A stretch of 64,000 nt of DNA, taken from the NCBI GenBank assembly GCA_001777575.1, contig MFEL01000012.1, positions 2,027-66,026 of the forward strand, read 5' to 3'. Origin of the DNA: Candidatus Doudnabacteria bacterium RIFCSPHIGHO2_01_FULL_46_24 (GTDB taxonomy: Bacteria > Patescibacteriota > Doudnabacteria > UBA920 > O2-02-FULL-48-8). Under the pieces are notes generated by a model, which was not told the origin of the DNA, searched no databases, and was given only the letters and a program-made list of their open reading frames with translations. How positions within the stretch are numbered: the first letter of the stretch is position 1; every line of letters begins with the position of its first letter. Positions 1-13,890 of the stretch are shown piece by piece. A program made the position numbers and the translations under genes.

Positions 1-81
1 ATGGTACGACCCTTCACTGCCCTAAACTGATTTTTGACCCACTCTTTATGATTCATAACTCATTTAATTTTTATTGGCCAA

Positions 82-741
82 CTAGGTTTTATTTTGTTGG
101 TTTGGCGTTATTGCTCTAAGCAGCGCATCCGTCAATTGTATTGTTTGAGAAAATAGTTGCTCGCAATTGATAAGGTATTCATGGTCAATAATAATTCTCT
201 TGCCCTCGCTGTATCCTTCTGGTCTCAGCTCTTGTTTCGGTGGATCTCCAACCGGAATAAAACTGATCGCTGAATGAGCAAACAAGTTTCTAACTTTTCT
301 GACTTTATCTAAATTGATTAGTAACGCTTTGCAGTCTTTATCTCCAATTAATTTATGTTGTGTTGAAAGTTTTTTAAAAATTCTATACTTATCACTAAGG
401 CTCAAATCTTTTATTACTTCGTATAAAAATAGCGAAGAAAGATCGCTCACCTTTAAGTCACCTTTATCTTTATCAATCTTCAGAAGATGTTCCGGGAAAA
501 ATAAATGCTGAAGCAGCGAATCGAGCATTAGTTCAATCTGGATACATGCGGCCAACGTTCTCCCTCGAAGCTCTTTTATTTTTTTCTCTTGCTGTTGCCA
601 ATCTCTGTCCAAGCGTTCATCCACCATAACCTTTGCGCCGGGCGCTAATTCAATCCACCCATCCACAATAGGTGGTTGTGATTTCTTGTTATCATGAGAG
701 TTAGATTTTTTGTCCATTTTCGAGTAATTTTCGTTAGCCAA
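82..741 (-). CDS. HEPN-domain protein (putative RNase, Abi-like), last gene of the hsd operon
   Basis: 219-aa ORF, TTG start in track (internal ATG gives MDKKSN...). Contains RNLFAHS = Rx4H HEPN motif near the C-terminal third. Begins 4 bp after the upstream gene stop, so co-operonic. Confidence 0.45.
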   Translation of the reverse strand: MANENYSKMDKKSNSHDNKKSQPPIVDGWIELAPGAKVMVDERLDRDWQQQEKKIKELRGRTLAACIQIELMLDSLLQHLFFPEHLLKIDKDKGDLKVSDLSSLFLYEVIKDLSLSDKYRIFKKLSTQHKLIGDKDCKALLINLDKVRKVRNLFAHSAISFIPVGDPPKQELRPEGYSEGKRIIIDHEYLINCEQLFSQTIQLTDALLRAITPNQQNKT

Positions 742-744
742 TTA

Positions 745-1902
745 TTATTCATAAGGACTAATTTTTACAAACGATTCTCCTCTATCAAGCAAGTCTGAAT
801 AAGTTAGAATTTCTATACCATGCAAAGAATGATTTAACTTACGCAATGCTTCTTTTTTATATACATTCCAACCCTTGCTTTGTCCAATCAATATAAAAGC
901 CCTCGGTTTAAGCATTAAGCACTCTTTCTCATAAACTCTTTTGATCTCATTTTGGATCTCGAACCTTTGCCTATCTATTTCTCCAAGGTAATTTACCACT
1001 TGTCCAATTGCTTGATTTGCTTCTTTAGACCAAATCCAAGACCCGGGATGGCCTGAGTCTTCTTCCACAATTTCGGGTATCGGTAATTTAATCTCTAAGA
1101 TATCAACAAACCCATCCAATGTCGGAAATAAATAATCCGGCATTATTCCTGTGATATTTATTTTTTGCTTTTCGATAGGCGTCTCGTAATTAATCCCGAA
1201 CAACCAATTATGTTTATAGATCCACTTTTGCCAAAAATCATCTCCGGCTGTTTCAGAAAAAGTACTGTTACTAAGGCGATTCTTTAATTCATCAATAACC
1301 TTTTTCCTATGAACTTGCAATCTACCGGCAGAAAGCCTCTCAGTTAATTCAGGATCTTTGGTATTTGCTAGATCCCAAAATTCCTGTGAAAATCCTTTAT
1401 CTAATAATTGCTCTATTACGGCTTTTTTGTTTTCGTCATCAACCAATATAACTCTATTTTTATCTACAATTGTTGGCGTACTAATGCTTTGCAGCTTCTG
1501 TATTAATTCGTTCTTTGTTTCTGGGTTAAGGCTAGAGAAAATCTCGTCACCTGATGAACCAGCTATAACATCTTTTTTATCACTCTCTGAATAATGCTTT
1601 AACTTCCGAGCCAGAAATGCTTGAGTTCTGTTTTTTCCACTTTGAGCAATATTCTTACAAAAATCTTGGTAAACTTTTAAATTTATTACTAACTTATTAT
1701 CTTCCTGATAAAAATCGGCAGTCTCTGTTAATGTAAGAAAAATTTCTTTTCCCTGGTTATCTTCAAGATAGTGCGATAGACTAAGGTGGTAGTCAAAAGT
1801 CTTACTGAGATGTCCAGTATATTCTCTAATATCAAAATCGAAGAGTAGTTGTGTGTTGTTCTTCTTGTATCTTTTGAAAAAGGTAAACTTTGAAAAATCC
1901 AT
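745..1902 (-). CDS. Shedu-like (DUF4263) PD-(D/E)xK nuclease domain protein
   Basis: 385 aa. C-terminal PDYLFPTLDGFVDILEIKLP fits a D...E.K PD-(D/E)xK core, followed by the KPRAFILIGQSKGW/NHSLHGIEILTYSDLL segment typical of DUF4263. No Walker motifs. Tightly coupled to hsdM (5-bp gap). Confidence 0.5.
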   Translation of the reverse strand: MDFSKFTFFKRYKKNNTQLLFDFDIREYTGHLSKTFDYHLSLSHYLEDNQGKEIFLTLTETADFYQEDNKLVINLKVYQDFCKNIAQSGKNRTQAFLARKLKHYSESDKKDVIAGSSGDEIFSSLNPETKNELIQKLQSISTPTIVDKNRVILVDDENKKAVIEQLLDKGFSQEFWDLANTKDPELTERLSAGRLQVHRKKVIDELKNRLSNSTFSETAGDDFWQKWIYKHNWLFGINYETPIEKQKINITGIMPDYLFPTLDGFVDILEIKLPIPEIVEEDSGHPGSWIWSKEANQAIGQVVNYLGEIDRQRFEIQNEIKRVYEKECLMLKPRAFILIGQSKGWNVYKKEALRKLNHSLHGIEILTYSDLLDRGESFVKISPYE

Positions 1903-1906
1903 AAAG

Positions 1907-3331
1907 TTATAAAATATCTCTTATGCCTACAATACTGCTTCTGATTTTTCCTTCATTCTGTTCAATCGCTTGAATCAACTGCTCAGGTGATTTATTTGAT
2001 GTCTCGTCTTTACGATTTGGATTCTTGAAATCCAAATTAAAATTTCGTCCGCGGATTTGGTCTATACCCACTTTCCAGGCAAACTCATTTTCTGTCCGTT
2101 TATGCCACCATTTTTTGACTGGTTCAAATTCGGCATCAGTAATGCCGCGATTCTTCGTATATTGCTTCAGCCCTGCAGGCAATGGCAATTCGTAATACCA
2201 AACTTCCTTGGTCGGCTTGCCTTTGTCAAAAAAAACCAAATTAGTATTTACCCCAGCGTACGGGTTAAATACACCTTGCGGCAGACGCACTATTGTATGT
2301 AAATTATATTCTTCGAGCAATTTTTCTTTGATCCGGGACTTCACGCCTTCGCCAAATAGCGAACCATCCGGAAGTACGATGCCGCATCGGCCAGTTGGTT
2401 TGAGTAAGTGCATGAACAAAACTAAAAACAAATCAGCGGTTTCTTTGGTCCGGAAGGATTGCGGAAAATTATCCTCTGTTCCATCTTTCACGGATCCACC
2501 AAATGGCGGATTGGCAACAATCACGTCCACTCGATCTTTAGGCCCATAATCTCGAAGGGGCTTGGATAACATATCTCCCCTGCGGACCTGCTCTGGGATT
2601 TCTACACCATGCAAAATTAAATTGGTAATGGCCAGCAAATGCGGCAATGGTTTAAGCTCTACTCCTTGGACATTGGATTCCAAAGTTTGTTCTTGTTTTT
2701 TGGTTTTCACTTCAGCACTTCGGATGTGTTGCAAAGCGCTAACTAAGAAACCGCCAGTACCACAAGCTGGATCCAAAATTTTCTCGCCAAGCTTAGGATC
2801 CACCATTTGCACGATAAATTTAGTCAGCGGACGCGGCGTATAGAATTCACCTGCGTTGCCAGCGTTTTGTAATTCTTTGAGCAAATGTTCATAAATTTCA
2901 TTAAAGTGATGCCGATCGTCCTGACTGTTGAAATTAATTTCATTTAACTTATTCGCGACTTGCCGGATTAGTGTCCCAGACTTCATGTAATTATAACTAT
3001 CTTCAAACACTTCTCGGACAATCGCCCCGCGTTGATTGGCAGCAGAAATGGGCAGATCCTTCAACTGTTTGAAAAGTTTATTATTTATAAAATCCAAAAG
3101 CTCATCCCCGGTAATTCCTTCGGGATTAGCTGCCCAATTTCGCCAACGTAACTTTTCGGGAATTGGAGATTTATATTTCGGATCAATTAACTCGTATTCT
3201 TGCTCTTTATCGTCAAAAATCTTCAAAAAAAGCATCCAGACCAGTTGGGAAACCCTTTGGGCGTCGCCATCCACACCTGCGTCTTTGCGCATGATATCCT
3301 GAATTGACTTGATTACGTTTTGTAATGACAT
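1907..3331 (-). CDS. hsdM: Type I restriction-modification N6-adenine DNA methyltransferase subunit M
   Basis: 474 aa. IVANPPFGGS catalytic motif, AdoMet motif LDPACGTGGFLV, HsdM N-terminal domain. 4-bp overlap with hsdR stop. Confidence 0.9.
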   Translation of the reverse strand: MSLQNVIKSIQDIMRKDAGVDGDAQRVSQLVWMLFLKIFDDKEQEYELIDPKYKSPIPEKLRWRNWAANPEGITGDELLDFINNKLFKQLKDLPISAANQRGAIVREVFEDSYNYMKSGTLIRQVANKLNEINFNSQDDRHHFNEIYEHLLKELQNAGNAGEFYTPRPLTKFIVQMVDPKLGEKILDPACGTGGFLVSALQHIRSAEVKTKKQEQTLESNVQGVELKPLPHLLAITNLILHGVEIPEQVRRGDMLSKPLRDYGPKDRVDVIVANPPFGGSVKDGTEDNFPQSFRTKETADLFLVLFMHLLKPTGRCGIVLPDGSLFGEGVKSRIKEKLLEEYNLHTIVRLPQGVFNPYAGVNTNLVFFDKGKPTKEVWYYELPLPAGLKQYTKNRGITDAEFEPVKKWWHKRTENEFAWKVGIDQIRGRNFNLDFKNPNRKDETSNKSPEQLIQAIEQNEGKIRSSIVGIRDIL

Positions 3332-3334
3332 AGT

Positions 3335-5686
3335 TTAAACTTTATAAATTGAGGTCTCAATTTCCTTGATTGCGGACAAATATTTTTCTCGGCCACCGAA
3401 GATTATATTTACGATTTCATAAGGGGTACCGAATTTCGGAAAAGGTGAGACTTGTAAGTCATCAATGCTATCGATAGCGGTAATTCCCGCGTCAGCATAT
3501 TTTTCAATCAAGGCATCAATCACTTCTCGTGCCTTACCTTCATACTTAGCAAAATAATTTCTTTTTTTCACATTATCAGCTCTTTCTTTACGAGTCAGTG
3601 GCGGTTTACCAAAAGCTAAATGACAAACTAAATCGAAAGGATCCAGATCTTTTCCTATTTCCTTTTCTAATTCTTCAAAAATCACTCCTCGGGATTCAAG
3701 TTCGTTAATTATTGCTTCTTTTTTCTCGGCATTAGTCCAAGCTTTGAGAAAATCATCTAAAGATTTGTGTTCGCTCAAAATATTTTTCTTTGAATAATCT
3801 TTCAACGACTCAGTAATCAACTTGCCGTTTTCGTCCATATATTGGACGCGCTCATTAATAATCTTAACCGCAACGTTATTTACATAATATTTCTTTAGGT
3901 TTCCGCCCGGACCATCTATGATTATTATATCCGAACCTGAACCTTCAGTCGTTCCTGTGTCGTCAGGAGGGCCATCAGTCCCGGGTGGAGGATCTATAGG
4001 ATCATCGCCTTTTGGTTCATAAACTACAACCGGGTCACCATCGAAATCCGGATCGGAAAATAGTTCCGTCGCATTTCGAAAATCTAAAATTGTGAAATAA
4101 AACTTGTGATAATCCTCGCGAATCCGAGTACCGCGGCCAATGATTTGCTTGAATTCGGAAACAGAATTGATATTCGTATCCAGCACGATTAATTCGCAAG
4201 TTTGGGCATCGACTCCCGTAGTCATAAGCTTCGAGGTCACGGCAATCACCGGATAGACACTTTCTGGATCAATAAAATTATCCAACTCTTTTTTGCCTTC
4301 GTCGTTATCTCCAGTGATTCGAACGACATAACGGCGATTTTCTGCAACCAATTCAGAATTTTGATTTACTAACGCTTGGCGCATGCGCTCGGCGTGATCA
4401 ATATCTACACAAAATACAATGGTTTTTTGGTACGGGTTCGTACTCTTTAGATATTCGCTGATTTTACTCGCGACTAGCTGCGTTCGCTCATCAATGACTA
4501 AATTGCGGTCATAGTCCTTAGCGTTATAAATCCGATCCGGAACTTCATTACCATATTTATCGGTTTTGCCAATTTCTGGACGATATCCTTCGACGTCGCG
4601 ATCAAGAGTTAAACGGATCACTTTATATGGCGCCAAAAACCCATCTTCAATTCCTTGTTTCAAAGAATATGTATAAATCGACTCACCAAAATAACTTTGA
4701 GTTGAGATGTCCTTGGTTTCTTTCGGAGTGGCAGTCAAGCCAATTTGAGTGGCACTCTTGTAATAATCCAAGATTTCACGCCAAGCCGAATTATCTTTCG
4801 CGCTCCCTCGATGACATTCATCCACAATGACTAAATCAAAAAAATCTGGAGAAAATTGCTTGAAAATATTATTTTCTTCTTCGGTTCCAGTTAACCCCTG
4901 GTAAAGCGCTAAATAAATTTCGTATGCTTTATCGACGTTGCGGTGTTCAATCTTAACCATCTTATCGCCAAAGGGTACAAAGTCGTTATTTCTAGTTTGG
5001 TTCGCCAGAATATTACGATCAACCAAGAACAAAATCCGTTTTTTGGTTTTGGATTTCCATAACCGCCAAATGATTTGAAACGCGGTGTATGTTTTACCTG
5101 TACCTGTAGCCATGACTAATAATAATCGCTTTTGACCTTTGGCTACAGCTTCGACGGCTCGATTAATTGCAACTCTTTGGAAATAACGAGGCTCCTTGCC
5201 TCCTACTTCTTGATAATAGTCCTGGTCAATTATTTGCCCAATACGTTCATTAATATTTTTTGCTTTTTTGTATCGCTCATATAACTCAGTTGGAGACGGA
5301 AACGATTCAAGACTAATTTCATTCTCAATTTTCCCCTTTGTTATTGTACGATCATGTTCTAAAAACGCTTTACCGTTTGAACTATAGACAAATGGAATAT
5401 CAAGTGCTTCGGCGTAAGCTAAGCCTTGTTGCATTCCATCACCCACTGAATGATCTGGGTCTTTGGTTTCGATAAGGGCTAGTGGTAAATCATTTTTGTA
5501 ATAAAGAATAACGTCAACACGCTTGCCTTCACCCCGCTTAACTGTTTTTCCATGAACAATAATTCGGCCCGCGGTAAAATAATACTGCTCACGTATCTGT
5601 GTTTGCAGGTCCCATCCCGCAGTGGTAACAGCGGGGATAATAAATTTAGTGCTGATATCTTGTTCAGTTAGGTATGCTTTTCGCAT
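3335..5686 (-). CDS. hsdR: Type I restriction enzyme R subunit (short form)
   Basis: 783 aa. N-terminal PD-(D/E)xK (VDVILY...ALIETKD), Walker A LVMATGTGKT, DEAH box VIVDECHR, helicase C-terminal motifs. Confidence 0.85.
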   Translation of the reverse strand: MRKAYLTEQDISTKFIIPAVTTAGWDLQTQIREQYYFTAGRIIVHGKTVKRGEGKRVDVILYYKNDLPLALIETKDPDHSVGDGMQQGLAYAEALDIPFVYSSNGKAFLEHDRTITKGKIENEISLESFPSPTELYERYKKAKNINERIGQIIDQDYYQEVGGKEPRYFQRVAINRAVEAVAKGQKRLLLVMATGTGKTYTAFQIIWRLWKSKTKKRILFLVDRNILANQTRNNDFVPFGDKMVKIEHRNVDKAYEIYLALYQGLTGTEEENNIFKQFSPDFFDLVIVDECHRGSAKDNSAWREILDYYKSATQIGLTATPKETKDISTQSYFGESIYTYSLKQGIEDGFLAPYKVIRLTLDRDVEGYRPEIGKTDKYGNEVPDRIYNAKDYDRNLVIDERTQLVASKISEYLKSTNPYQKTIVFCVDIDHAERMRQALVNQNSELVAENRRYVVRITGDNDEGKKELDNFIDPESVYPVIAVTSKLMTTGVDAQTCELIVLDTNINSVSEFKQIIGRGTRIREDYHKFYFTILDFRNATELFSDPDFDGDPVVVYEPKGDDPIDPPPGTDGPPDDTGTTEGSGSDIIIIDGPGGNLKKYYVNNVAVKIINERVQYMDENGKLITESLKDYSKKNILSEHKSLDDFLKAWTNAEKKEAIINELESRGVIFEELEKEIGKDLDPFDLVCHLAFGKPPLTRKERADNVKKRNYFAKYEGKAREVIDALIEKYADAGITAIDSIDDLQVSPFPKFGTPYEIVNIIFGGREKYLSAIKEIETSIYKV

Positions 5687-5906
5687 AAAAAATTGAGCTT
5701 AAACTTTTCTACTTCCAACGCGCCACTCGACTGGCGCATTGGAGGACTTGCTGGGAAGCAGGTCTTTTTGCCTGGGATAATTCCGACGCCGATTGGCCAG
5801 CCTCGCCTAGCGAGTCTAGGCGGGCGGGTTCGGAGTATCTCGCCTTAGGCGAGATAAAAATTCAAGCTTTTTTTCGACTAAAAGTAAGCTAATAATGCCA
5901 CTTTTT
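5687..5906 (-). repeat. Conserved 5' leader element, copy 1 (upstream of hsdR), with 139-bp hairpin-rich insertion
   Basis: 5687-5750 and 5890-5906 align with 6757-6820 and 6824-6840. Conserved stem-loop tccaaCgcgccaCTCGACtggcgcAttgga at 5714-5743. Insertion 5751-5889 carries two 7-bp hairpins (cgcctag..ctaggcg, tctcgcc..ggcgaga). Confidence 0.6.
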
Positions 5907-5969
5907 GCATAAATTTACTAGAACCTGACTATTGACATAAAAGTCTAGTTGGTATATGGTATATTTACG

Positions 5970-6022
5970 GTATTCGAAAAAGGCGTCGGCTCTATTGGCC
6001 GATGGCCTTTTTCATTTTAGCC
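5970..6022 (-). terminator. Rho-independent terminator after DUF3800 gene (bidirectional A/T-flanked hairpin)
   Basis: aaaaaggcgtcggctctattggccgatggcctttttcatttt: GC stem flanked by A-tract and T-tract, overlapping the 3' end of ORF 5992-6756. Confidence 0.5.
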
Positions 6023-6756
6023 AAAAATCCGTCCGGTTTATGATGATGTATATTAAATCCGTAATTTCGAAAATTTGAAGTTAATGTAGATACTCCCAAG
6101 TTCCTCTTGAATTGCTCTTTAAAATACATCTTGGCCTGCGAAGGCAAAGGGATTAATTTCTCATTTATCAAAAGCTCATAATTAATGCTGCCAACCAATA
6201 AATCTGTAAGTTGCAAAAGATCATTTGAACGCGAATCCAACCGGCAAACTCCGGCAATTGCCAATCTACTGAATTCATTATTTATTCTGTTTTTAATATT
6301 TACCTCAAACCTTGATCTTTTTGGACTTACTACGTTGTCAGCCAACACAGTCAAAACTTCATTTTTTCGTAGATTGCCTTTAATTAACTCCTGAGCAATT
6401 TGTTCGTATGCAAAAAATGGGTCGCTATGATAATTTTCTTTAAAATACTTGCTCCTCTTGTCAATACTATATGAGGAAAAATGAATGCTATGGGTAGCAA
6501 ATAATGCTGATAAAATTTCCAAAGCAACGGGTAGCTTTGCCTTATTTAGATCATTAAACTTTACTTCCCACCAAAATTGATTTTTCTCCCTGATGTACCG
6601 GATCTTCTGCTGTAAAAAGTAAGGCTGAGAAACTTTAACCATACCCACCGTAAAATATGGCTGAGATTTCTGATCCAGCGTACCTGATTCGTCCAAAAAA
6701 CAAAACGGCGTCCAAATTTGCCTGAAATCTTTAATCGTTAGATTATTTTCTGCCAT
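5992..6756 (-). CDS. DUF3800 family protein
   Basis: 254 aa. N-terminal CFLDESG motif and QLTDLLVGSI motif characteristic of DUF3800. Start codon directly abuts leader element copy 2. Confidence 0.6.
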   Translation of the reverse strand: MAENNLTIKDFRQIWTPFCFLDESGTLDQKSQPYFTVGMVKVSQPYFLQQKIRYIREKNQFWWEVKFNDLNKAKLPVALEILSALFATHSIHFSSYSIDKRSKYFKENYHSDPFFAYEQIAQELIKGNLRKNEVLTVLADNVVSPKRSRFEVNIKNRINNEFSRLAIAGVCRLDSRSNDLLQLTDLLVGSINYELLINEKLIPLPSQAKMYFKEQFKRNLGVSTLTSNFRNYGFNIHHHKPDGFLAKMKKAIGQ

Positions 6757-6845
6757 AAAAAATTGAGGTTAAACTACTCTAGTTTTCAACACGCCAGTCG
6801 AGTGGCGCGTTGGAAATATACTCTAATAATGCCACTTTTTGGGCA
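6757..6845 (-). repeat. Conserved 5' leader element, copy 2 (upstream of DUF3800 gene)
   Basis: aaaaaattgagGttaaact...caacacgccaGTCGAGtggcgcGttgga...taataatgccacttttt. Stem preserved with loop substitutions relative to copy 1. TATAAT (RC of 6853-6858) immediately upstream in mRNA sense. Confidence 0.6.
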
Positions 6846-7040
6846 AAAATACAATTATAAACGCCCCACATAAGTGGAGCGCTGGATCGGCTTTCACAGG
6901 AAAACGAGATTAGGTTTTACTCGCAATCCGAAGATTGTTTCAGAATTCAAGTTCGGTGTTACATTCAAAATTGGATCCCGGATCGCCCTCCCTTGTGTTT
7001 AAGCTCTTGGGGTCGTGGCGTCCGGGATGGGGCCTGCGGG

Positions 7041-7799
7041 CTAATTCTTCGCCATATAAAACTTTCTCTGTTTTTCTGGGAATTTTTCGATGGCGTAGCG
7101 GAGCATGGTGCGGGGCATGATTTTGTAATGCTTTTTGAGGAATTTGATCTCTGTTGGCAGGGAGCGGTTGCCGACTTCGCGCAGCATCCAGCCTACGGCT
7201 TTATGGATGAGGTCGTGCTTGTCTTGCAGTAAAATTTCCGCGATTTCCAAAGTTTTGGCAAATTGATTTTGCTTGATGAAGTGGTAAGTGGCGATGATGG
7301 CAACCCGGCGCTCCCAGAGATTTTGGGATCTTGCCAGTTTGTTTAGAATTCCTGTCGGCTTGCCAAGCAAGTAAGCGCCCAAGATTTTGTCAGCGCTAAG
7401 ATCAACTAAATCCCAGTTGTTCACGCGATCGATATGGTCCAAGTAAAATTTATAGATTCTAGTTTTTTGGCTTTGCTCGCCGCGATTGAATTGAATGACC
7501 AAGATCAAAAACCCAATCTGCCGCTCCTCGTGGATTTTTGACTTAAGCAGCGTTTCGATCTCGCGAAAACCAAGATGCGAATACTTTTTTGCCAAGAGGC
7601 GCTGAGTGGCAGAATTGAGGCCCACAAATTGATCGCCATAACCGTATTGGCCTTTTCCGGTTTTAAAAAACCATTGCGAGCTTGTGGCTCGCTTTGGGTC
7701 AGCCAACTTTTTAATATCTTTAGTTAAAGATTTAAGCGAAGGATTGTAAGTGATTATACTAAGGCCGGATATTAAATGGCTTTTTATTGGCTTCCACAA
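7041..7799 (-). CDS. DNA alkylation repair protein (AlkD/AlkC-like HEAT-repeat)
   Basis: 252 aa. Family-typical motifs (WFFKTGKGQYGYGDQFVG, WDLVD, LRYAIEKFPE) of the Pfam DNA_alkylation family. 40-nt overlap with upstream STAS ORF suggests the start is slightly downstream of 7799. Confidence 0.6.
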   Translation of the reverse strand: MWKPIKSHLISGLSIITYNPSLKSLTKDIKKLADPKRATSSQWFFKTGKGQYGYGDQFVGLNSATQRLLAKKYSHLGFREIETLLKSKIHEERQIGFLILVIQFNRGEQSQKTRIYKFYLDHIDRVNNWDLVDLSADKILGAYLLGKPTGILNKLARSQNLWERRVAIIATYHFIKQNQFAKTLEIAEILLQDKHDLIHKAVGWMLREVGNRSLPTEIKFLKKHYKIMPRTMLRYAIEKFPEKQRKFYMAKN

Positions 7800-8052
7800 G
7801 TATTTTAAGTGTCGCCTGCACCGAAAGGTTATCGCTCGACAAAAGTACCAGACGTTCGCCTAGTTGGTTTAACAATGGACTTAAGAATTCATCAGCCCAT
7901 GATGGCGACAATGTTAAGACGCCAGAAAAATCAACATCCAATGATTCATCAGGGCGAATTTCCCGTAAAGTAGGCTGAAAAGCCTTAAAAGCCTCACTGC
8001 CCAATTCCCGAGATATTAAAGTTTTTCCAAATTTTTCTAACTCTAACTTCAT
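7759..8052 (-). CDS. STAS-like (DUF4325 / anti-sigma-antagonist-like) small protein
   Basis: 97 aa, size and pattern of STAS-like DUF4325. 20 bp downstream of the GHKL ATPase gene. Confidence 0.45.
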   Translation of the reverse strand: MKLELEKFGKTLISRELGSEAFKAFQPTLREIRPDESLDVDFSGVLTLSPSWADEFLSPLLNQLGERLVLLSSDNLSVQATLKILVEANKKPFNIRP

Positions 8053-8072
8053 AAATGTTTATAAAATATTAA

Positions 8073-8801
8073 TTAAAATTCTATTTTTGCTAAACACCCT
8101 CTCGGGTTGTTTTGGCCACGAGTAACCTGAAACACCTTATCAGAACCCTGCATTCTCACTTCCGCATCCCCGCTGGTAAAAAACAGGTCAATGGGTTGGC
8201 TGAGAACAATTTCGCGAACAGATTTAAGTCCATTTCCTCGTTTCTCTGGCGCGCGACCTGATATGAATTCGGTAAACGCAACCTGGACCGCGGTAACATG
8301 ATTCGGAAGGTCGGGACGAACTTGCCTTAATGTCTCTAAGATGCCTAAACCCCGATCGGCAAGAACAATAATTCTTTTTTGAAGATCATACCCAAAAAAA
8401 ATTCCGGGCGTATCTGGCCACTTGCCTAAATTATGAGCAAAAGAATTATCGCCAATCTCTCCTGTAACTAAGACGATCAAGGAATACAATTTCTCAAATC
8501 CTGGTTTTTGCACCAATTCGTATTCCATTTTAGAAAGCTTGGCATTAAAAATTGAGCTTGTCTGGCAATAGAACTTGCCAGGGAATTCAGAATTATTTTG
8601 TGTCCATTCCGAGGCAAATTTAAAAAGATCGCTCGAAAAAATTTCAAGATCTTTTTCCCGGTAATACCTGTGCTTCCCGCCTTCTTTTCGAATCGCAATT
8701 AACTTACCACTTTCGTCCCATCGACGCAGTGTATTTTGAGAAACCCCTAAATATCGGGCGGCTTGGCTTATAGTGAGTAATCTTTCATCATCCATGGCCA
8801 T
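8073..8801 (-). CDS. HTH (excisionase/HTH_17-type) fused to GHKL/HATPase_c ATPase (RsbW-like kinase fold)
   Basis: 242 aa. N-terminal TISQAARYLGVSQNTLRRWDESGKL (HTH_17). C-terminal N-box GEIGDNSFAH, G1 DRGLGI, G2 RGNGLKSV. Confidence 0.55.
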   Translation of the reverse strand: MAMDDERLLTISQAARYLGVSQNTLRRWDESGKLIAIRKEGGKHRYYREKDLEIFSSDLFKFASEWTQNNSEFPGKFYCQTSSIFNAKLSKMEYELVQKPGFEKLYSLIVLVTGEIGDNSFAHNLGKWPDTPGIFFGYDLQKRIIVLADRGLGILETLRQVRPDLPNHVTAVQVAFTEFISGRAPEKRGNGLKSVREIVLSQPIDLFFTSGDAEVRMQGSDKVFQVTRGQNNPRGCLAKIEF

Positions 8802-8929
8802 ATCTTAACATAATCCCTAAATCTACACAATATCAATCCAAATCTACCCAAAAGTAGCTAAATCTACCATAATAATAGGGAATAAACACCCCATACGGGT
8901 GTGAGGTTTTAAATCCTTATATAAAACCT

Positions 8930-8955
8930 AAAGCCCCGCATATTGCGGGGCTTTA
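8930..8955 (-). terminator. Rho-independent terminator downstream of metallopeptidase gene
   Basis: aaagccccgcaatatgcggggcttt: perfect 11-bp stem, 3-nt loop, T-rich flank on minus strand. Confidence 0.6.
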
Positions 8956-9123
8956 GCAAAAGTGCGCTATTCCCATGTAGTGTTTTGATTATTCTCTTAA
9001 TTCTCTCCTCAAGACTTAACCGTCTTTTTGGTTTTGCTACAGGGAATGGCCCACTTGCGGCACATCCTGTTGCATCCTGACATCTCTCCTTTCACCTTAA
9101 GTCTATACCCTATTCTAGGCTTG

Positions 9124-9501
9124 TCAAGCTTTTCTTTTGGCTTCCGCCTCACGGACCTCTTCCTCGTCCATGCCAAAATGGTGGGCTATTTCGTGCCAAA
9201 CCGTGTTTTTGACTATTTCCTGCATGTCTTCTGGATTTCTGGCCGCTTGCTCAATGGGCCGCTGAAAAATTGTGATCTTGTCCGGCAACACGCCACCGTA
9301 ATACGGCCCGCGCTTGCCTTGCGGCACGCCTTCATAAAGGCCAAACAAAGTCCAGCCGTGCCGCAGGCGGAGCTTAACTGCCTGCTCGGCGCTGGGCTTA
9401 TCTTCTATGACAATGGCAACATTGTCCAAGAGCTCCAAAAATTTCGGCGGAATCGCTTCAATCCCCTCGGCCACCAATTGTTCAAATTCGTCCTTGGTCA
9501 T
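9124..9501 (-). CDS. Zincin-like metallopeptidase family protein (HExxH)
   Basis: 125 aa. WHEIAHHFG zinc-binding HExxH motif. Size and pattern of the small putative-metallopeptidase (Zincin_1/SprT-like) family. Confidence 0.65.
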   Translation of the reverse strand: MTKDEFEQLVAEGIEAIPPKFLELLDNVAIVIEDKPSAEQAVKLRLRHGWTLFGLYEGVPQGKRGPYYGGVLPDKITIFQRPIEQAARNPEDMQEIVKNTVWHEIAHHFGMDEEEVREAEAKRKA

Positions 9502-10168: not shown

Positions 10169-11614
10169 TTAATTGTTTGGCCGGACTTCGGCTTCGGGAA
10201 TATCCAGGCCGGGAAGCGGCATGGGCTTAATGATTGGCGCTTCTGGCTGGCTGTCCAGAACATCCTTGACCAAGGGGACGATGACGCTGCTTCCATAGAA
10301 GCCGTCCGCGGCAGACTTGATGGGGAAGATCAGAGATGGCACAAAGATATCCTCCCATTTGCCGCCCAAATCATGCCACAGCCTGACTAAGCCGCGGAAC
10401 GGTGTGTTCAATTCCACAATTTCGGTTTTGGCGCCTGGCTCGCTGTAAGGATACCAAGTGCGGAAACCGCCGCGCTCGGCAATCGCCTTAATCCGACTGA
10501 CATCGGTCTCGACGTCGTAAGCTGAGGCTTCATAGCGCTGGTTAGTCAGCTCGGAGACTGATGAGACCCTATTAACTCTAACACTGTAAGTTACGAACAT
10601 GCCGTTTTTGTTACCGCCCTCGTCATAGATTTCAGCCCCGGCCACTTTCAGCGGATAGACTACAGAGACGACATCAGGAATGTAATAGGACATTTTGTCC
10701 GACGACGAAAGTCTTTCGTAATCCAGCTTCCAGTAATTCTGGACCATGGGCTCACCGAAGTTTTCCCGGCCGATGCCGTATTCGTCGAGGAAAGCGTTGG
10801 TGGCGGCAATCACGGCTTCATCAGCCGGGATCTGCTCGGGCCTGAGCCGATACTGCTCATAGCACTCCGGGGTTTGGCATTGCCGGTCCGGAGTTTGCCA
10901 CCGCTCCCAGTTCTCAGAAATGTTAATTGTTCCTTCCTTAAGGTCGACATTGAGGCCATAGCCGAAATCGCGATCCTCAGCCACACGGAAGTATTCCAGT
11001 TTGCTTTGGCCGAATTTACCGGCGTCAAAAATTTGGACCGCGAACTGGCTGATGAATTCGTTGAAATCAACGCTGCCGAACCCTTTTACGCGGCGGTAGA
11101 CTTCCATTTTGTCTTGATCAATGCCGAAGTCCTCGCCGGCATACACGAATTTGTAATTGGTGGGAACCGGCATGATGCTGCTGCCGCCGCCAAAACCAGC
11201 GCTGCTTCTTTCCGCTTCCAAAGCCGCGGGTAAAGCCGCGTCTGCAGGCCCACCGCCCCCGCCGCCCTGGCCTTTGGCGGAGACGGACACTTTGGTCAAC
11301 GCGCCAAACGCCCCTTCGCCGGCAAGAGCGATCTCCTGCTTGCCAGGCAGCAGAACTTTGTCGCTGCCCGATAGCACGGCGATCAATGCCACCGCCGCAA
11401 TCACTGCCCCGGCAATGGCGAATTTGAATCTGCTCATAAAGTTAAAATTCTGAGTTAATAATTGTTTCTCTTCCCGGGCCATATGCCCAGACAATTGGGC
11501 TCTCAGTCTTAGCGCAAACTTTGGGTCAGGTTTTTCCTGGCTTTGAATTGACCGTAATTTGGCCATCAAAAGCTCGGTCTGTTCGTCTTCAAATTGTTCG
11601 CGGTTGTCGTTCAT
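10169..11614 (-). CDS. Putative anti-sigma factor / membrane protein with large extracytoplasmic domain
   Basis: 481 aa. Overlaps ECF sigma gene by 4 bp. Cytoplasmic N-terminus, single TM (FKFAIAGAVIAAVALIAVL), Gly-rich linker, large C-terminal domain. Confidence 0.4.
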   Translation of the reverse strand: MNDNREQFEDEQTELLMAKLRSIQSQEKPDPKFALRLRAQLSGHMAREEKQLLTQNFNFMSRFKFAIAGAVIAAVALIAVLSGSDKVLLPGKQEIALAGEGAFGALTKVSVSAKGQGGGGGGPADAALPAALEAERSSAGFGGGSSIMPVPTNYKFVYAGEDFGIDQDKMEVYRRVKGFGSVDFNEFISQFAVQIFDAGKFGQSKLEYFRVAEDRDFGYGLNVDLKEGTINISENWERWQTPDRQCQTPECYEQYRLRPEQIPADEAVIAATNAFLDEYGIGRENFGEPMVQNYWKLDYERLSSSDKMSYYIPDVVSVVYPLKVAGAEIYDEGGNKNGMFVTYSVRVNRVSSVSELTNQRYEASAYDVETDVSRIKAIAERGGFRTWYPYSEPGAKTEIVELNTPFRGLVRLWHDLGGKWEDIFVPSLIFPIKSAADGFYGSSVIVPLVKDVLDSQPEAPIIKPMPLPGLDIPEAEVRPNN

Positions 11615-12138
11615 GGTTTTGCGCCAATTAATGCCTGCCGCAGGCTCGATATCGCCCGCGAGAACATGACCTTTGAATTGGCTTCGGAAACGTTCAGGAT
11701 CTGGGCAATTTCCTTGTGCGACAGATCATCCCAGATGCGCAGGAGGATGATTTCCCGCTGCTGCGGTTGAAGTGCGGCAAGAAATTGCTTGACCGATTCG
11801 GCATCCAAGGCCCGGTCCAGCCCGTTGGCTAAATTTTCGCCGCTCACAACCTCTACTGATCCAATATCAAATGTGGGCTGATTGCGGCGGTAATGGTCAA
11901 TTAACGCGTTTCGCGCAATCGCATATACCCAAGGCTTAAAACCGGCGCCGTGTTCGCGAAAAGTGCCGACGCGCTTGACTATGTTGGTAAACACGGTGCT
12001 GACGATGTCCTCGGCTGTCTGCTTGTGCCGGACGCGGTTGTAAACAAATGCGTAGATTTTGGGCAGGTAAACTTCGTAGAGCTCATCGAAGTTTGACCAA
12101 TTCCCCATCTGGCACTGTTTAGCTATGTCTGATTCCAT
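11611..12138 (-). CDS. ECF-type sigma-70 family RNA polymerase sigma factor
   Basis: Region 2 (YLPKIYAFVYNRV...AEDIVSTVF) and region 4 (LSHKEIAQILNVSEANSKVMFSRA). Probable start at internal Met (MESDIAK); track ORF extends to 12228. Confidence 0.75.
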   Translation of the reverse strand: MESDIAKQCQMGNWSNFDELYEVYLPKIYAFVYNRVRHKQTAEDIVSTVFTNIVKRVGTFREHGAGFKPWVYAIARNALIDHYRRNQPTFDIGSVEVVSGENLANGLDRALDAESVKQFLAALQPQQREIILLRIWDDLSHKEIAQILNVSEANSKVMFSRAISSLRQALIGAKP

Positions 12139-12193
12139 GGAATTCCATATAGTAATACGTATGAACCGCAAAATGGTAACAATTTTGGCCAGA

Positions 12194-13890
12194 TCACCAG
12201 CTTCCGCCGCCTCCGCCGCCAAAACCACCGCCCGCTCCGCCGCCGCTAAAGCCGCTGCCGCCTGTGGCGGCGCTGCTGGGTGAAACGGCCTGGGTGGAAG
12301 CTACGGCAAAACCATTCAGGCTTTTGGAAAACGCGATGGCGCTGAAAGTGCCCATACTCGGATCCGAATACCACGAAGGGTTTTGGTTATAAATGCCCTC
12401 AAACTGCCTGGCCCATGCTTTTTCCACGCCCAAAACCATGGCAAAGGGCAAAAGCTTTTCGAATCGAGTGGGATTTAGCTCAGGCGCGTTGTGAAATGCC
12501 AGACGATCCTTCTCCGCGACTGTAATGTATTCCTTCAACCCCAAAACTTGCCGCTTCGCCTCGGCTCCTTTGGCTGTCAGAGCTGGCATGAATTGGGCGA
12601 AAACAAGCAGCAGTATGCCAGTCGGGATCACCCCAATTAAACCCAAAAGACCAACCAACGGCAGAAGTATGGACAAAAAAAATCCAAGGACTATCAGAAC
12701 TCCGCCCCACACCGAATACTTGATCCGAATCTTGTTGGGGTTGCCGGCAAAATAGCCCTTTTGCGTCAGGTCTTGATAGAGCTTGTCTGAAATTTTTTTA
12801 GCTGTTTTGTAAAAATCATCAGGCAGCTCTGAAATCAATATTTCCGGCTTGTCGCCGAACAACTTGTTCAAAAGATCGTTTTCATGAGGCGGCAACGCGG
12901 CAGCGTTTGGCAGGCGGACTAGTTTGTAGTCACTGACGCCCAAAAACTTTTTTTCGGCACCTTTTCGATTTTCAAAAATTCCAGCACCGCCAGATGGATG
13001 ATTTCGGACGATAAATCCTTTTTGTTGACTCGGCCGTCAATAATCGTGCCAACCTCGGCCGGCGTCAAATCCGAAGGCGGATCATACTCGGCCACAATCG
13101 GACTCTGGCCTTTGGGATCGCGGCCAAATTTCCACCAGCGGTGAAGGAGCCAAATCAAAACCAGCAGTGGGATGAGTAATGGCCAAAAAGTCTGAAGTCG
13201 GCGGAAGAATATCTGCATGGCGGTAGGCTGGGCCACCACATTTTTGGGAAAGCCGAACGCAAACGTCAGACCTTCACCCGGCTGCAGGTGAGAGTCGGCA
13301 AACTGAACCGAGCCGTCCGACAAAACTTCAGTTTGAACACAAGATGTGTTTGATCCAAATGAACCGCGGAAGCAATCCAGCTTCAAGTCTTTCTCAGCCA
13401 CAAATTGTGGTAAAAAAACCTGCGCGAACACGGACTCGATGGGCACTTGCCAGTCCGTGCCAGTGACGTTCCAATAAAGCTCATCATGCTCTTCAAAGTA
13501 ATTGATCGCGCCTTTAATCGTATAGCTGATGGCAAACGTCTGTTTCCCGCTTATCAGCTCATTAGTATTGCCGATTTTGATTTGCTTGTTTTTACCAGAA
13601 CCTAATAGTTGAAACGGCTCCGGCTTATCATTGCGCGAGACGGCAACATCCGATATCCGCAGCTTATCCAGCGGGATGTCCCGGTAAATGCCGTGGCGCG
13701 ACAAAACGCCGAAATTATAGACAATGGTTTCTTCGACGAGCAAGGAGGCATTAGGCTGGATATGGATGACTACATCAAAAGCCTCAATTTGCTCCGGCTG
13801 ATCCGAATCCTGCGTCTCGTGCGCAAAAGTTGGCAAAACCAAAACCAGCGCTGTGAGCAAAGCAACAATTAAAATAACAGCTCTTCGCAT
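12194..13890 (-). pseudogene. DUF2207-family membrane protein split by a frameshift (two overlapping ORFs 12919-13890 and 12194-12943)
   Basis: N-terminal fragment: signal peptide plus extracellular domain plus TM. C-terminal fragment: TM helices plus Gly-rich tail GGGFGGGGGGSW. Frames switch near the T7 homopolymer at 12947-12953. Could be a sequencing error. Confidence 0.5.

Follow-up and report, generated by a model that had tools for sequence, protein, structure and literature searches.

An HTH-GHKL protein and its DUF4325/STAS-like partner as a candidate autoregulated switch in Patescibacteria

The described systems closest to the locus studied here are CapK/CapS and VapKSC (Chambers et al., EMBO J 2026; PMC13373217; CapS, PDB 9z71; VapS, PDB 9z7o). 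CapK is a proven kinase of 368 aa with an HTH-STAS-GHKL architecture, in which the STAS domain forms half of an ssDNA groove; it is activated by ssDNA via a conserved aromatic residue, W68, and deletion of its HTH has no phenotype (PMC13373217). Ser54 is the proven phosphosite of CapS, which binds the cargo promoter as a repressor, VapS is a proven STAS antitoxin, and CapKS adjoins R-M systems in 88 of 443 cases (PMC13373217). CapS is 182 aa long and carries an HTH_24 domain. The Streptomyces protein BldC (PDB 6ama, 6amk) binds direct repeats as head-to-tail multimers (PMC5859096). We found almost nothing in the literature on DUF4325, or on STAS-like proteins occurring with GHKL proteins.

Genes A and B lie side by side in the window, by which we mean the whole 64,000-nt stretch of DNA that was analyzed (Table 1). 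As in CapK/CapS, the gene for a GHKL kinase (predicted for A) is followed directly by a STAS gene (STAS-like for B), the HTH sits at the N terminus of the kinase, and the circuit is autoregulated (a prediction for A-B) and often lies beside R-M or defense genes; the homology is remote in both the kinase core and the STAS domain. The differences are considerable. Just ~50 residues separate the HTH from the GHKL domain in the 240-aa A protein, so that A, unlike CapK, has no STAS domain, and its HTH is of the BldC/MerR type, whereas that of CapK is a wHTH. In the CapK/CapS system a DNA-binding wHTH resides on the repressor CapS, whereas the 97 residues of B form a STAS-like unit with nothing added, which would leave the DNA-binding role to the kinase. 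The operators of CapK/CapS are palindromes, in contrast to the three direct repeats of A-B. CapK/CapS lies upstream of an immune operon, whereas A-B has no fixed one and the genes downstream of it are mostly unrelated, although in the window A-B does stand before immune genes. The A-B family is also mostly confined to Patescibacteria and very strongly conserved, unlike CapK/CapS. The sequence-only reading had called a partner-switching kinase with its own HTH unusual; this no longer stands, since CapK is HTH-STAS-GHKL (PMC13373217) and a kinase of this kind is not unprecedented.

In VapKSC, as in A-B, the gene for a CapK-like GHKL kinase (predicted for A) comes first and is paired with one for a STAS protein that stands alone and has a conserved phospho-Ser (predicted in B), but VapKSC has a third gene, encoding the VapC PIN toxin, where A-B has no conserved third gene; VapS bears a C-terminal inhibitory helix, and VapK, unlike A, has a STAS domain and no HTH. 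The SpoIIAB/SpoIIAA and RsbW/RsbV modules likewise pair a HATPase_c_2-type GHKL Ser kinase with a single-domain STAS protein, as predicted for A-B; SpoIIAA and RsbV have a Ser at a helix N terminus, like B, and the N, G1, and G2 boxes of SpoIIAB are in register with those of A. However, A-B has neither a sigma factor nor a linked PP2C phosphatase, its gene order is the reverse of spoIIAA-AB and rsbV-W, and its predicted kinase bears a fused HTH; SpoIIAB also resembles A at a statistically weak level. Head-to-tail binding of repeats by BldC matches the predicted direct-repeat operator of A-B, but BldC is a 68-residue stand-alone protein that acts on contiguous 9- to 10-bp repeats (AATTNNNNC), whereas A is an HTH-GHKL fusion and the A-B repeats, with the core TAG(A/T)TT, lie two helical turns apart.

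Table 1. Positions of genes, domains, and regulatory elements at the A-B locus in the window
Feature	Position	Strand	Basis or remark
Gene A, HTH-GHKL protein	8073..8795	(-)	240 aa from the ATG at 8795
Listed ORF of gene A	8801..8073	(-)	242 aa; residue numbers follow the 242-aa numbering
BldC/MerR/excisionase-type HTH of A, aa 8-55 (predicted)	8637..8780	(-)	domain matches
Linker and N-terminal helices of A, aa 56-105	8487..8636	(-)	alignments
GHKL (Bergerat-type) ATPase/kinase domain of A, aa 106-242 (predicted)	8076..8486	(-)	motifs, remote profile matches
N box GEIGDNSFAHN, aa 114-124	8462-8430	(-)	
G1 box DRGLGI, aa 149-154	8357-8340	(-)	
G2 box RGNGLK, aa 188-193	8240-8223	(-)	
Gene B, 97-aa DUF4325/STAS-like protein	7759..8052	(-)	20 bp after the A stop
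AlkD-like DNA alkylation repair gene	7041..7799	(-)	PF08713, 4e-59
Direct repeat 1 (distal), GGTAGATTTAG	8858..8867	(-)	core GTAGATTT at 8867-8860
Direct repeat 2, TTGGGTAGATTTGG	8838..8851	(-)	core at 8847-8840; 20 bp from repeat 1
Direct repeat 3 (proximal), TTGTGTAGATTTAG	8817..8830	(-)	core at 8826-8819; 21 bp from repeat 2
Extended -10: TG (8810-8809), one base, TAAGAT (8807-8802)	8802..8810	(-)	17 nt after TTGTGT
Intrinsic terminator of the upstream zincin gene	8928..8956	(-)	13-bp perfect stem, T-rich tail

The two proteins of the pair

Current database labels for A and B are just "HTH domain protein" and "DUF4325." The true start of gene A is likely to be the second ATG (giving MDDER...), because its homologues are 239 aa long and start 5 to 9 nt past the conserved -10. 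Profile searches matched residues 8 to 53 of A to HTH_17 (5e-12), MerR_1 (1e-10), and the TIGR01764 excisionase family (1e-7). The best solved relative of this domain is BldC (6ama; 3e-5), with 40 to 44% identity and a TM-score of 0.73; the BldC family model NF033787 scored 32.8 bits against a cutoff of 77. The recognition helix reads S-Q-N23-T-L-R-R-W. PADLOC recognized A by its HTH only (mad1, 7e-16). The linker that follows contains a Y78-C79 motif and a tryptophan, W66 (codon 8606-8604), that is invariant within the close clade; most of the relatives displayed from a wide alignment have an aromatic residue at this position.

The C-terminal part of A is predicted to be a GHKL kinase-like ATPase. 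It contains the N box pattern E-x3-N-x3-H, with a general-base Glu (E115) and an Mg-binding Asn (N119), as well as the G1 pattern DxGxG and the G2 pattern GxGL, and a 76-sequence alignment of family members 29 to 51% identical to the window protein showed E115, N119, H123, N124, D149, G151, G153, R188, G189, G191, and L192 to be invariant. The window protein itself had no Pfam HATPase match at an E value of ≤1. HATPase_c_2 (PF13581) and HATPase_c (PF02518) were the recurrent non-HTH Pfam families among its relatives, with matches below the curated cutoffs in 25 of the 76 (best, 6e-4) and 13 of the 76 (best, 5e-4), respectively. Using hhalign, we aligned A with the kinase core of CapK at an E value of 6e-4; the N, G1, and G2 boxes of the two proteins coincide, and N119 falls opposite the catalytic N218 of CapK. 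Alignment with SpoIIAB also placed the motifs in register, at an E value of just 0.1. Profile searches of the PDB with A found no GHKL chain.

An AlphaFold2 model of A built from 55 close homologues reached a pLDDT of 52. Its order of secondary structure elements fits a Bergerat fold, and all of its non-HTH Foldseek matches were N domains of Hsp90, TRAP1, or GRP94 (E value of 2e-3 or weaker, with high rmsd). The model is poor, and we assign the putative HATPase fold from the motifs and the remote profile matches. On the strength of the invariant motifs, the subthreshold HATPase matches, and the CapK alignment, we retain the sequence-only reading of A as an excisionase-type HTH fused to a SpoIIAB/RsbW-like GHKL domain.

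Its description of the gene 20 bp downstream as encoding a 97-aa STAS-like protein also held. The B model has a pLDDT of 86, and its leading Foldseek matches were RsbS (E value of 0.09, TM-score of 0.52) and then SLC26 STAS domains, none of them at an E value of ≤0.001. The DUF4325 family (PF14213) matched the window protein at an E value of 7.7e-4 and 19.6 bits, under its 23-bit cutoff, and was found in many B relatives of 80% identity and in all four distant partners. A profile of the B family had VapS as its best match in the PDB (E value of 0.12). Alignment of B with the STAS domain of CapS by hhalign gave an E value of 1.7e-4 and placed S51 on S54 of CapS; that with SpoIIAA was uninformative. 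S51 (codon 7902-7900) belongs to an invariant motif, P50-S51-W52-x-D54-E55, and begins a helix (residues 50 to 67) in the model. In SpoIIAA, RsbV, CapS, and VapS, the phosphosite is a Ser or Thr that opens the helix after strand 3. It was invariant in 11 B proteins 35 to 79% identical to the window protein, while the neighboring S49 varied. The B product is acidic (pI 5.1), is 96 to 99 aa long and devoid of an HTH in most homologues, and carries no output domain.

The promoter of gene A and its direct repeats

On its 5' side the A-B transcription unit is bounded by the terminator of the upstream zincin gene, and matches to known RNA families in the 5' region were all subthreshold and lay on terminator hairpins. 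Between this boundary and gene A, the sequence AAATCTAC (plus strand; GTAGATTT on the gene strand) occurs at 8819-8826, 8840-8847, and 8860-8867, within 10-mers C(T/C)AAATCTAC at 8817-8826, 8838-8847, and 8858-8867 (spacings of 21 and 20). The window contains six copies of AAATCTAC (1.65 expected), three of them in this array, which is its sole phased array; mononucleotide shuffles averaged 0.07 phased pairs. The third repeat starts with TTGTGT (8830-8825), a conserved -35-like hexamer, and together with TAAGAT we infer it to be the A-B promoter. The pattern TGnTAnnAT is kept across loci. A promoter scan had proposed TTGATA-18-TATGTT, which we rejected in favor of TTGYRT-17-TAnnAT, a pattern kept from locus to locus. 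Translation would start at 8795, 6 nt after the -10, so the A-B mRNA is probably leaderless.

Nearly all of ~75 loci had three repeats with the consensus TTG-YR-TAG-W-TTT, spaced 20 to 21 bp apart in otherwise unrelated flanks, with the third overlapping the -35. Outside the gene's own promoter, 633 kb contained 6 phased pairs, compared with 3 after shuffling. Operator sequence and recognition helix varied together: N at residue 23 of A went with G-TAG operators (32 of 33 loci), D with CA-TAG (36 of 37), and M or Q with TA-TAG (5 of 5). Residue 23 was the top covarying column of the whole of A (mutual information of 1.23 of 1.60 bits), and the second- and sixth-ranked columns, Y17 and Q22, likewise fall in the HTH. 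D-type and N-type sequences interleave when clustered by their C-terminal domains. The sequence-only reading had suggested that three direct repeats could be the operator of A; conservation across loci and covariation with the recognition helix provide strong in silico evidence for this prediction of an autoregulatory operator. Since the repeats cover and adjoin the upstream side of the promoter -35, A would repress the A-B transcript, and most likely represses its own promoter.

Conservation of the pair

Neighborhood conservation of the HATPase/DUF4325 pair had been set as a check on the sequence-only reading, and its outcome did not refute that reading. B directly follows A in all 79 testable GTDB loci, with gaps of 7 to 96 bp. 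In four loci from distant relatives (three without an HTH, one with HTH_24), the genes are again neighbors in every case and touch or overlap by 1 to 4 nt. The identities of the two proteins drop in parallel, from ~84% for A and 81% for B to ~60% and 56%. The cassette occurs in at least 592 species-level genomes. No third conserved gene was found beside it among 83 loci; apparent third-gene clusters were rejected as antisense shadow ORFs inside A and B. The HTH is missing from about half of the wider family, so that the core function of the pair cannot be DNA binding.

Across Patescibacteria, A and B are 60 to 88% identical while synonymous sites are near saturation, with identity at just 32 to 59% of fourfold degenerate sites and an amino acid identity of 77 to 87%. 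In two pairs of loci with RpoB as a shared neighbor, RpoB was 73% identical and A 67%. Such RpoB-level conservation is unusual among accessory regulators like CapKS, and the switch model described below does not explain it.

A predicted switch and its competitors

With moderate confidence, we read A-B as a relative of the CapK/CapS switch with a reduced and rearranged set of domains, in which kinase and substrate make up a self-contained unit that regulates itself. Phosphorylation, signal, and output we infer as follows. The in silico evidence suggests that the BldC-like HTH of A binds the three same-face repeats, 20 to 21 bp apart. From homology, the GHKL domain would bind ATP and dock B in the manner of SpoIIAB-SpoIIAA and CapK-CapS; by the same analogy A probably phosphorylates B, at the invariant Ser51 at the N terminus of the second main helix. 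The state of B, whether bound or released and phosphorylated, may then alter the assembly of A on the repeats and so set expression of the cassette and of co-directional genes reached by read-through, which in the window would mean the AlkD-like gene and possibly then DUF3800, type I R-M, and Shedu. More speculatively, the trigger could be ssDNA or DNA damage, as for CapK, with W66 as part of the sensor; purely as a hypothesis, W66 might parallel the ssDNA-stacking W68 of CapK. Several observations stand against the switch model: A has no room for a CapK-type STAS domain, CapK tolerates deletion of its HTH, B carries no output domain, no operator arrays precede the downstream genes, no phosphatase gene is conserved nearby, and many members of the wider family have no HTH.

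One reading extends this switch and does not exclude it. Like CapKS, A-B might control adjacent cargo, with DNA damage gating variable downstream genes (R-M, Shedu, DUF3800, Fic, and repair enzymes) through A-B read-through. We regard this as possible, at a clearly lower probability than the switch itself. In the window the cassette heads a co-directional, low-GC island comprising the AlkD-like gene, a DUF3800 gene at 5992-6756 (PADLOC PDC-M04A, 1e-24), type I HsdR and HsdM, and the Shedu gene SduA. Across 75 loci, the gene that follows B runs in the same direction in 64 (a raw count) and is highly variable, and it is often close: among the 64, the next gene starts within 50 bp of B in 18 and within 150 bp in 32. 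Eco57I, N6, MmeI, and EcoRI methylases, ResIII, and SoFic are found among the downstream genes, and the association of CapKS with R-M systems offers a parallel. However, R-M and defense genes make up just one-sixth or so of the genes immediately downstream, the others including housekeeping genes (ArgRS, L21, MnmA, a Mur ligase, and UDP-glucose dehydrogenase), and no operator arrays precede the downstream genes in the 75 loci, whereas CapS binds its cargo promoter. The defense setting hinted at by the sequence-only reading is real in the window and partial elsewhere. The AlkD-like gene is present after the pair, as that reading had it, and probably co-transcribed with B in this genome, since its start overlaps B by 41 nt; it is a local neighbor outside the conserved module, lying near A-B in one other locus of 80, on the opposite strand there.

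A second alternative, which we consider decidedly unlikely, is a kinase toxin with a STAS antitoxin, or an abortive infection module. Free A would be harmful, B would be a decoy substrate or inhibitor, and the HTH would provide autoregulation in the style of a type II toxin-antitoxin system, a logic comparable to HipBA or VapKSC. A two-gene autoregulated cassette that is translationally coupled in distant relatives, patchy in distribution, and variable in context would suit such a module, as would its AbiEi/AbiEii, HicA, Fic, and R-M neighbors at various loci. One A copy, 51% identical, lies on a phage-like contig beside its serine integrase, and the G1-G2 region of A matches the phage family phrog_3364 (2.4e-7). 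VapS is itself a STAS antitoxin, and coupling with PIN.4 VapC-like genes is described for DUF4325 genes (PMC5499597). On the other hand, dN/dS is very low and identity across Patescibacteria high, unlike in toxin-antitoxin and defense genes, neither B nor the GHKL portion of A is recognized by any PADLOC model, and the tight A clade is absent from IMG/VR. We also know of no GHKL kinase toxin.

No more probable is a switch by nucleotide state, without phosphotransfer, in which the GHKL domain senses ATP versus ADP and B is a reversible corepressor or antirepressor of A. There is a precedent, in that SpoIIAB-ADP sequesters SpoIIAA without phosphorylating it; all ATP-binding motifs of A are invariant, and no phosphatase gene near A-B is conserved across loci. 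Invariance extends, however, to the general-base E115 and the Mg-binding N119, and in B to S51, the residue aligned with the CapS phosphosite, but not to S49; these features argue for phosphotransfer.

We rejected, as very improbable, a classical anti-sigma and anti-anti-sigma pair of the SpoIIAB/RsbW type with its sigma factor encoded elsewhere. In its favor, A has remote Pfam matches to the family of anti-sigma kinases, HATPase_c_2, and sigma genes lie upstream at two loci (an ECF sigma gene at 2.8 kb in the window and a sigma gene at ~5.5 kb in locus L009), but across 80 loci there is no conserved linked sigma gene, kinase and STAS genes stand in the opposite order, A has a DNA-binding output of its own, and the SpoIIAB match is weak next to that of CapK (0.1 versus 6e-4). 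Least probable of all is that the repeats are iterons served by a replication initiator, or arm sites of a mobile element to which A binds as a recombination directionality factor resembling an excisionase. Both readings, suggested by phased 20- to 21-bp direct repeats adjoining an excisionase-family HTH gene, were likewise rejected, since no integrase, other recombinase, or replication gene is conserved, the repeats always overlap the promoter directly before gene A, just an 8- to 12-bp core is conserved per 21-bp unit, and 72,556 plasmids held no full-length match to A, only to its HTH part.

A bolder proposal, to which we assign a rather low probability, is that the kinase is itself the transcription factor and the STAS protein its phospho-regulated modulator, in a stress or DNA damage sensor shared across Patescibacteria, or else that A is the first GHKL kinase toxin, restrained by a STAS pseudosubstrate. 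A lineage-wide sensor would invert the logic of CapK/CapS, and its RpoB-level conservation would reflect contact with something central to the cell, for example RNA polymerase, ssDNA, or a factor in replication or repair.

For the autoregulated switch that we favor, kinship with CapK/CapS and VapKSC suggests what DUF4325 partners may do, namely serve as phospho-Ser STAS substrates, and this can be tested. GHKL-STAS pairs would be wired in several ways: DNA is bound by the substrate in CapS, would be bound by the kinase in the A-B family, and is bound by neither protein in the HTH-less relatives and VapKS. The correspondence between operator and recognition helix offers a natural specificity-swap test for BldC-type HTHs. 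Should DNA damage prove to be the signal, the cassette might also aid in annotating inducible islands in uncultured bacteria. Patescibacteria have small genomes in which few regulators are known, and to these A-B adds a widespread, predicted two-gene switch.

The A-B cassette and its two proteins

The A-B cassette is real and functionally coherent, and its first, sequence-only reading was essentially right. That reading had described an excisionase-type HTH fused to a GHKL ATPase (gene A), a STAS-like 97-aa gene 20 bp downstream (gene B), an AlkD-like gene after B and three direct repeats upstream of A, and we found all of these in the window (see table). The zincin gene upstream closes in a strong terminator, leaving A-B with a 5′ control region of its own. 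Of only six copies of the repeat in the whole 64 kb (1.65 expected), three sit before gene A. Taken as 10-mers, they are spaced by 20 and 21 bp and form the only such phased array in the 64-kb window.

Features of the window from the downstream genes through the A-B cassette to the ECF sigma factor gene
Feature	Position	Strand	Remarks
ORF of unknown function, 219 aa	82-741	minus	
Shedu SduA	745-1902	minus	PADLOC 1e-92; Pfam SduA_C 5e-18
Type I HsdM	1907-3331	minus	
Type I HsdR	3335-5686	minus	
DUF3800	5992-6756	minus	PDC-M04A 1e-24
AlkD-like ORF	7799..7041	minus	PF08713 4e-59; overlaps end of B
Gene B, 97 aa	8052..7759	minus	20 bp from A
Gene A, 242 aa as listed ORF	8801..8073	minus	
GTAGATTT, three copies, gene strand	8867-8860, 8847-8840, 8826-8819	minus	
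Strong terminator ending zincin gene	8956-8928	minus	
Zincin gene	9501..9124	minus	upstream of A
ECF sigma factor gene	11611-12228	minus	Sigma70_r2, r4

Residues 8-55 of A (242-aa numbering) form an HTH of the HTH_17/MerR/excisionase type (5e-12), whose nearest solved relative is BldC (6ama, 3e-5; 40-44% identity, TM 0.73 on the model). The C-terminal part of the window protein has no Pfam match. An exhaustive search with residues 57-242 returned 293 clusters at 50% identity, and in an alignment of 76 sequences, 29-51% identical to the window protein, E115, N119, H123, N124, G133, D149, G151, G153, R188, G189, G191 and L192 were invariant. These residues make up the N, G1 and G2 boxes of GHKL ATPases. 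The recurrent non-HTH families among the 76 relatives were HATPase_c_2 (25 sequences) and HATPase_c (13), in sub-threshold matches spanning most of each profile. AlphaFold gave only a poor model of A (pLDDT 52), whose non-HTH Foldseek matches were nonetheless all Hsp90, TRAP1 or GRP94 N-domains. Motifs and remote homology make it highly probable that A is a GHKL protein, an assignment with good sequence support that is not structure-proven. The G1-G2 region (residues 142-220 in 240-aa numbering) also matches phrog_3364 (2.4e-7), a phage protein family without known function whose profile spans about 300 aa.

The HTH of A matches PADLOC mad1 (7e-16), and this type of HTH is reused across several defence-associated proteins. 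Plasmid matches 48-57% identical to it form the N-terminus of proteins annotated as "DEAD/DEAH box helicase family" on actinobacterial and alphaproteobacterial plasmids.

B matches DUF4325 just under threshold, and many of its close relatives carry PF14213. With a pLDDT of 86 its model is good, and the structures nearest to it, though only weakly similar, are RsbS and SLC26 STAS domains (E 0.09, TM ~0.5).

The AlkD-like gene has a TTG at 7799 as its sole plausible start, giving a 41-nt overlap with B (7759-7799), and a perfect TATAAT directly follows the stop codon of B. An AlkD-like DNA-repair glycosylase may thereby share a transcript with a switch that possibly responds to DNA damage. Other loci do not keep this arrangement: an AlkD-like neighbour recurs in one other locus only (L063), on the opposite strand.

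A probable three-repeat operator upstream of A

The proposal that the repeats serve A as its operator gained from their recurrence in about 75 loci with unrelated flanks and from their covariation with the HTH. These loci share a common architecture of three repeats (consensus TTG-YR-TAG-W-TTT) spaced 20-21 bp apart, the third of which provides a −35-like TTGYRT hexamer, with an extended −10 element, TGnTAnnAT, 17 nt past it. In the close clade, the ATG mostly comes 5-9 nt beyond the −10 element, which implies that the A-B mRNA is leaderless and that the real start of A in the window would be 8795. Five divergent cassettes (L076, L077, L079, L081 and L088; 63-67% identity) have a 20- to 30-nt leader with an AGAGG Shine-Dalgarno sequence, suggesting that the family has switched between leadered and leaderless translation.

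All three repeats of a locus are of the same variant, GTAG, CATAG or TATAG, and the variant follows residue 23, at the start of the recognition helix S-Q-N-T-L-R-R-W. Asparagine at this position goes with GTAG (32 of 33 loci), aspartate with CATAG (36 of 37) and methionine or glutamine with TATAG (5 of 5). No other column of A has as much mutual information with the variant as residue 23 (1.23 of 1.60 bits), and the second- and sixth-ranked columns, Y17 and Q22, likewise lie within the HTH. When clustered on the C-terminal domain, N-type and D-type sequences intermingle, a pattern that suggests repeated changes of type. On the strength of this conservation and covariation, A very probably binds the three repeats through its HTH and autoregulates. 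BldC binds direct repeats head-to-tail (PMC5859096), which agrees with a direct-repeat operator; the sites of A, however, are two helical turns apart.

Phased arrays of the locus-specific repeat hardly occur away from the promoter of A: the loci had six such pairs elsewhere in 633 kb, versus three in shuffled sequence, and two of the six make up the three-repeat array before another copy of A, in tandem, in L076. This copy (5936-6743) lies about 5 kb downstream of the first copy and is preceded, as the first is, by three GCATAGTTT repeats; its leader contains a Shine-Dalgarno sequence. Some genomes thus carry two cassettes, which could cross-regulate.

Neighbouring genes, distribution and selection

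B directly followed A in all 79 loci with downstream DNA, the identities of the two proteins declining in parallel, and all-against-all clustering of neighbouring ORFs revealed no third conserved gene. Four distant relatives of A were looked up, three without an HTH (~200 aa) and one fused to HTH_24 (257 aa); the labelled assemblies among them are "Deltaproteobacteria", Bdellovibrionales and Lindowbacteria MAGs. In all four, a DUF4325 gene of 86-89 aa comes next, touching or overlapping by 1-4 nt. The two genes are thus neighbours in these relatives too; hence the ancestral unit is GHKL plus DUF4325, to which HTHs of several types were added.

Besides the Doudnabacteria MAG of the window, A has thousands of 80-88% identical relatives in Peregrinibacteria, Komeilibacteria, Taylorbacteria, Minisyncoccia and other groups. 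A GTDB scan with one genome per species gave at least 592 carriers, the best 80 of which are nearly all Patescibacteria (60-84% identity). Copies 72-82% identical to the window protein occur in five loci (L031, L034, L063, L071 and L073) on contigs of MAGs labelled Gammaproteobacteria, Elusimicrobiaceae, Roseivirgaceae and Bdellovibrionales; these are either mis-binned Patescibacteria DNA or transfers beyond the group. Four-fold degenerate sites are only 32-59% identical, near saturation, and the proteins are 77-87% identical; in two locus pairs with RpoB as a common neighbour, RpoB is 73% and A 67% identical. These values speak for purifying selection over a long time, and not for a recent sweep. 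Such strong conservation is explained by none of the models below and is the most intriguing feature of the pair.

A 51%-identical HTH-GHKL gene lies right behind the large serine integrase of a phage-like IMG/VR contig (L101, IMGVR_UViG_3300022555_001665, 5575-8101) that also encodes small and large terminases and a replication initiator. Two GTAGGTT repeats 21 bp apart precede the gene, and the contig stops before any position for B. In the Francisella prophage KIRK, the DUF4325 gene Fhv_0047 directly follows a 293-aa hypothetical protein near a CI repressor and an integrase (PMC7924643). Prophages may commonly carry GHKL-like plus DUF4325 pairs.

The gene after B is co-directional in 64 of 75 loci, often very close, and variable. 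In the window, A-B opens a low-GC island (positions 1-9000; GC 0.34-0.45 versus 0.50-0.56 beyond 9000) whose genes, from the AlkD-like gene to the 219-aa ORF, are all co-directional with it. The defence setting suggested earlier holds here, with DUF3800, HsdR, HsdM and SduA downstream, but only partly elsewhere, where about one in six genes after B encodes R-M methylases or nucleases, Fic or PDC candidates, the remainder being housekeeping or of unknown function. No HsdS gene was seen in the island (1-9000); SduA occupies the place expected for the S subunit. In L006-L008, a type I HsdR, a 558-aa HATPase_c_3 (MORC-like) protein and a Dcm-type cytosine methylase lie directly upstream of the cassette (2805-5531), the HATPase_c_3 protein being a second GHKL protein, unrelated to A, in the same defence neighbourhood.

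Relation to CapK/CapS and a possible mechanism

CapK (HTH-STAS-GHKL), when activated by ssDNA, phosphorylates Ser54 of CapS, a STAS-wHTH repressor, and so derepresses adjacent immune operons; in VapKSC, phosphorylation regulates the STAS protein VapS, which serves as antitoxin to the toxin VapC (Chambers et al., EMBO J 2026, PMC13373217). Against the PDB, the B-family profile weakly matched two 2026 entries, 9z71 ("winged helix-turn-helix transcriptional regulator") and 9z7o ("Escherichia VapS"). Both proteins were compared directly with those of a genuine capK-capS-Bub locus on an IncHI2 plasmid. The A-family profile aligned to CapK residues 208-321 (E 6e-4), with the N box, G1, TLK motif and G2 in register and N119 on the catalytic N218, a far better match than to SpoIIAB (E 0.1). 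The B-family profile aligned to CapS residues 15-77 (E 1.7e-4), and its invariant Ser51 landed exactly on the phosphoserine, Ser54.

By this homology, A probably phosphorylates B on Ser51. The phosphorylation state of B might in turn alter the assembly of A on DNA and read-through to downstream genes, an inference we hold tentatively. More speculatively, and doubtfully, the signal would be ssDNA or DNA damage, with W66 aiding sensing.

Two alternatives seem unlikely to a similar degree. A could be a kinase-toxin with B as its STAS antitoxin. Or the GHKL domain could act as a nucleotide-state switch without phosphotransfer, a reading compatible with its conserved boxes; the invariant Ser51 falls on a phosphorylated residue. 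That A is an anti-sigma factor is very improbable: an ECF sigma gene lies 2.8 kb upstream on the same strand, but does not accompany the cassette in other genomes. An overlapping 481-aa gene without a Pfam match, possibly for its anti-sigma factor, follows this sigma gene (region 10169-12228). The direct repeats and excisionase-type HTH could also be read as iterons or an excisionase, which the promoter architecture of some 75 loci makes hardly credible.

Like CapK/CapS, A-B has the gene order kinase then STAS, and in this window it is likewise placed ahead of immune genes. In contrast to CapK, A lacks a STAS domain, having just ~50 residues from HTH to GHKL, and carries another type of HTH; B lacks the wHTH of CapS; the A-B operator consists of direct repeats; and A-B has no fixed cargo, whereas CapK/CapS has adjacent immune operons. 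A-B adds a new architectural variant to this recently described type of GHKL-kinase/STAS-substrate regulatory pair and does not form a category of its own; for Patescibacteria, and for DUF4325 proteins of the B type, no such pair has been described.
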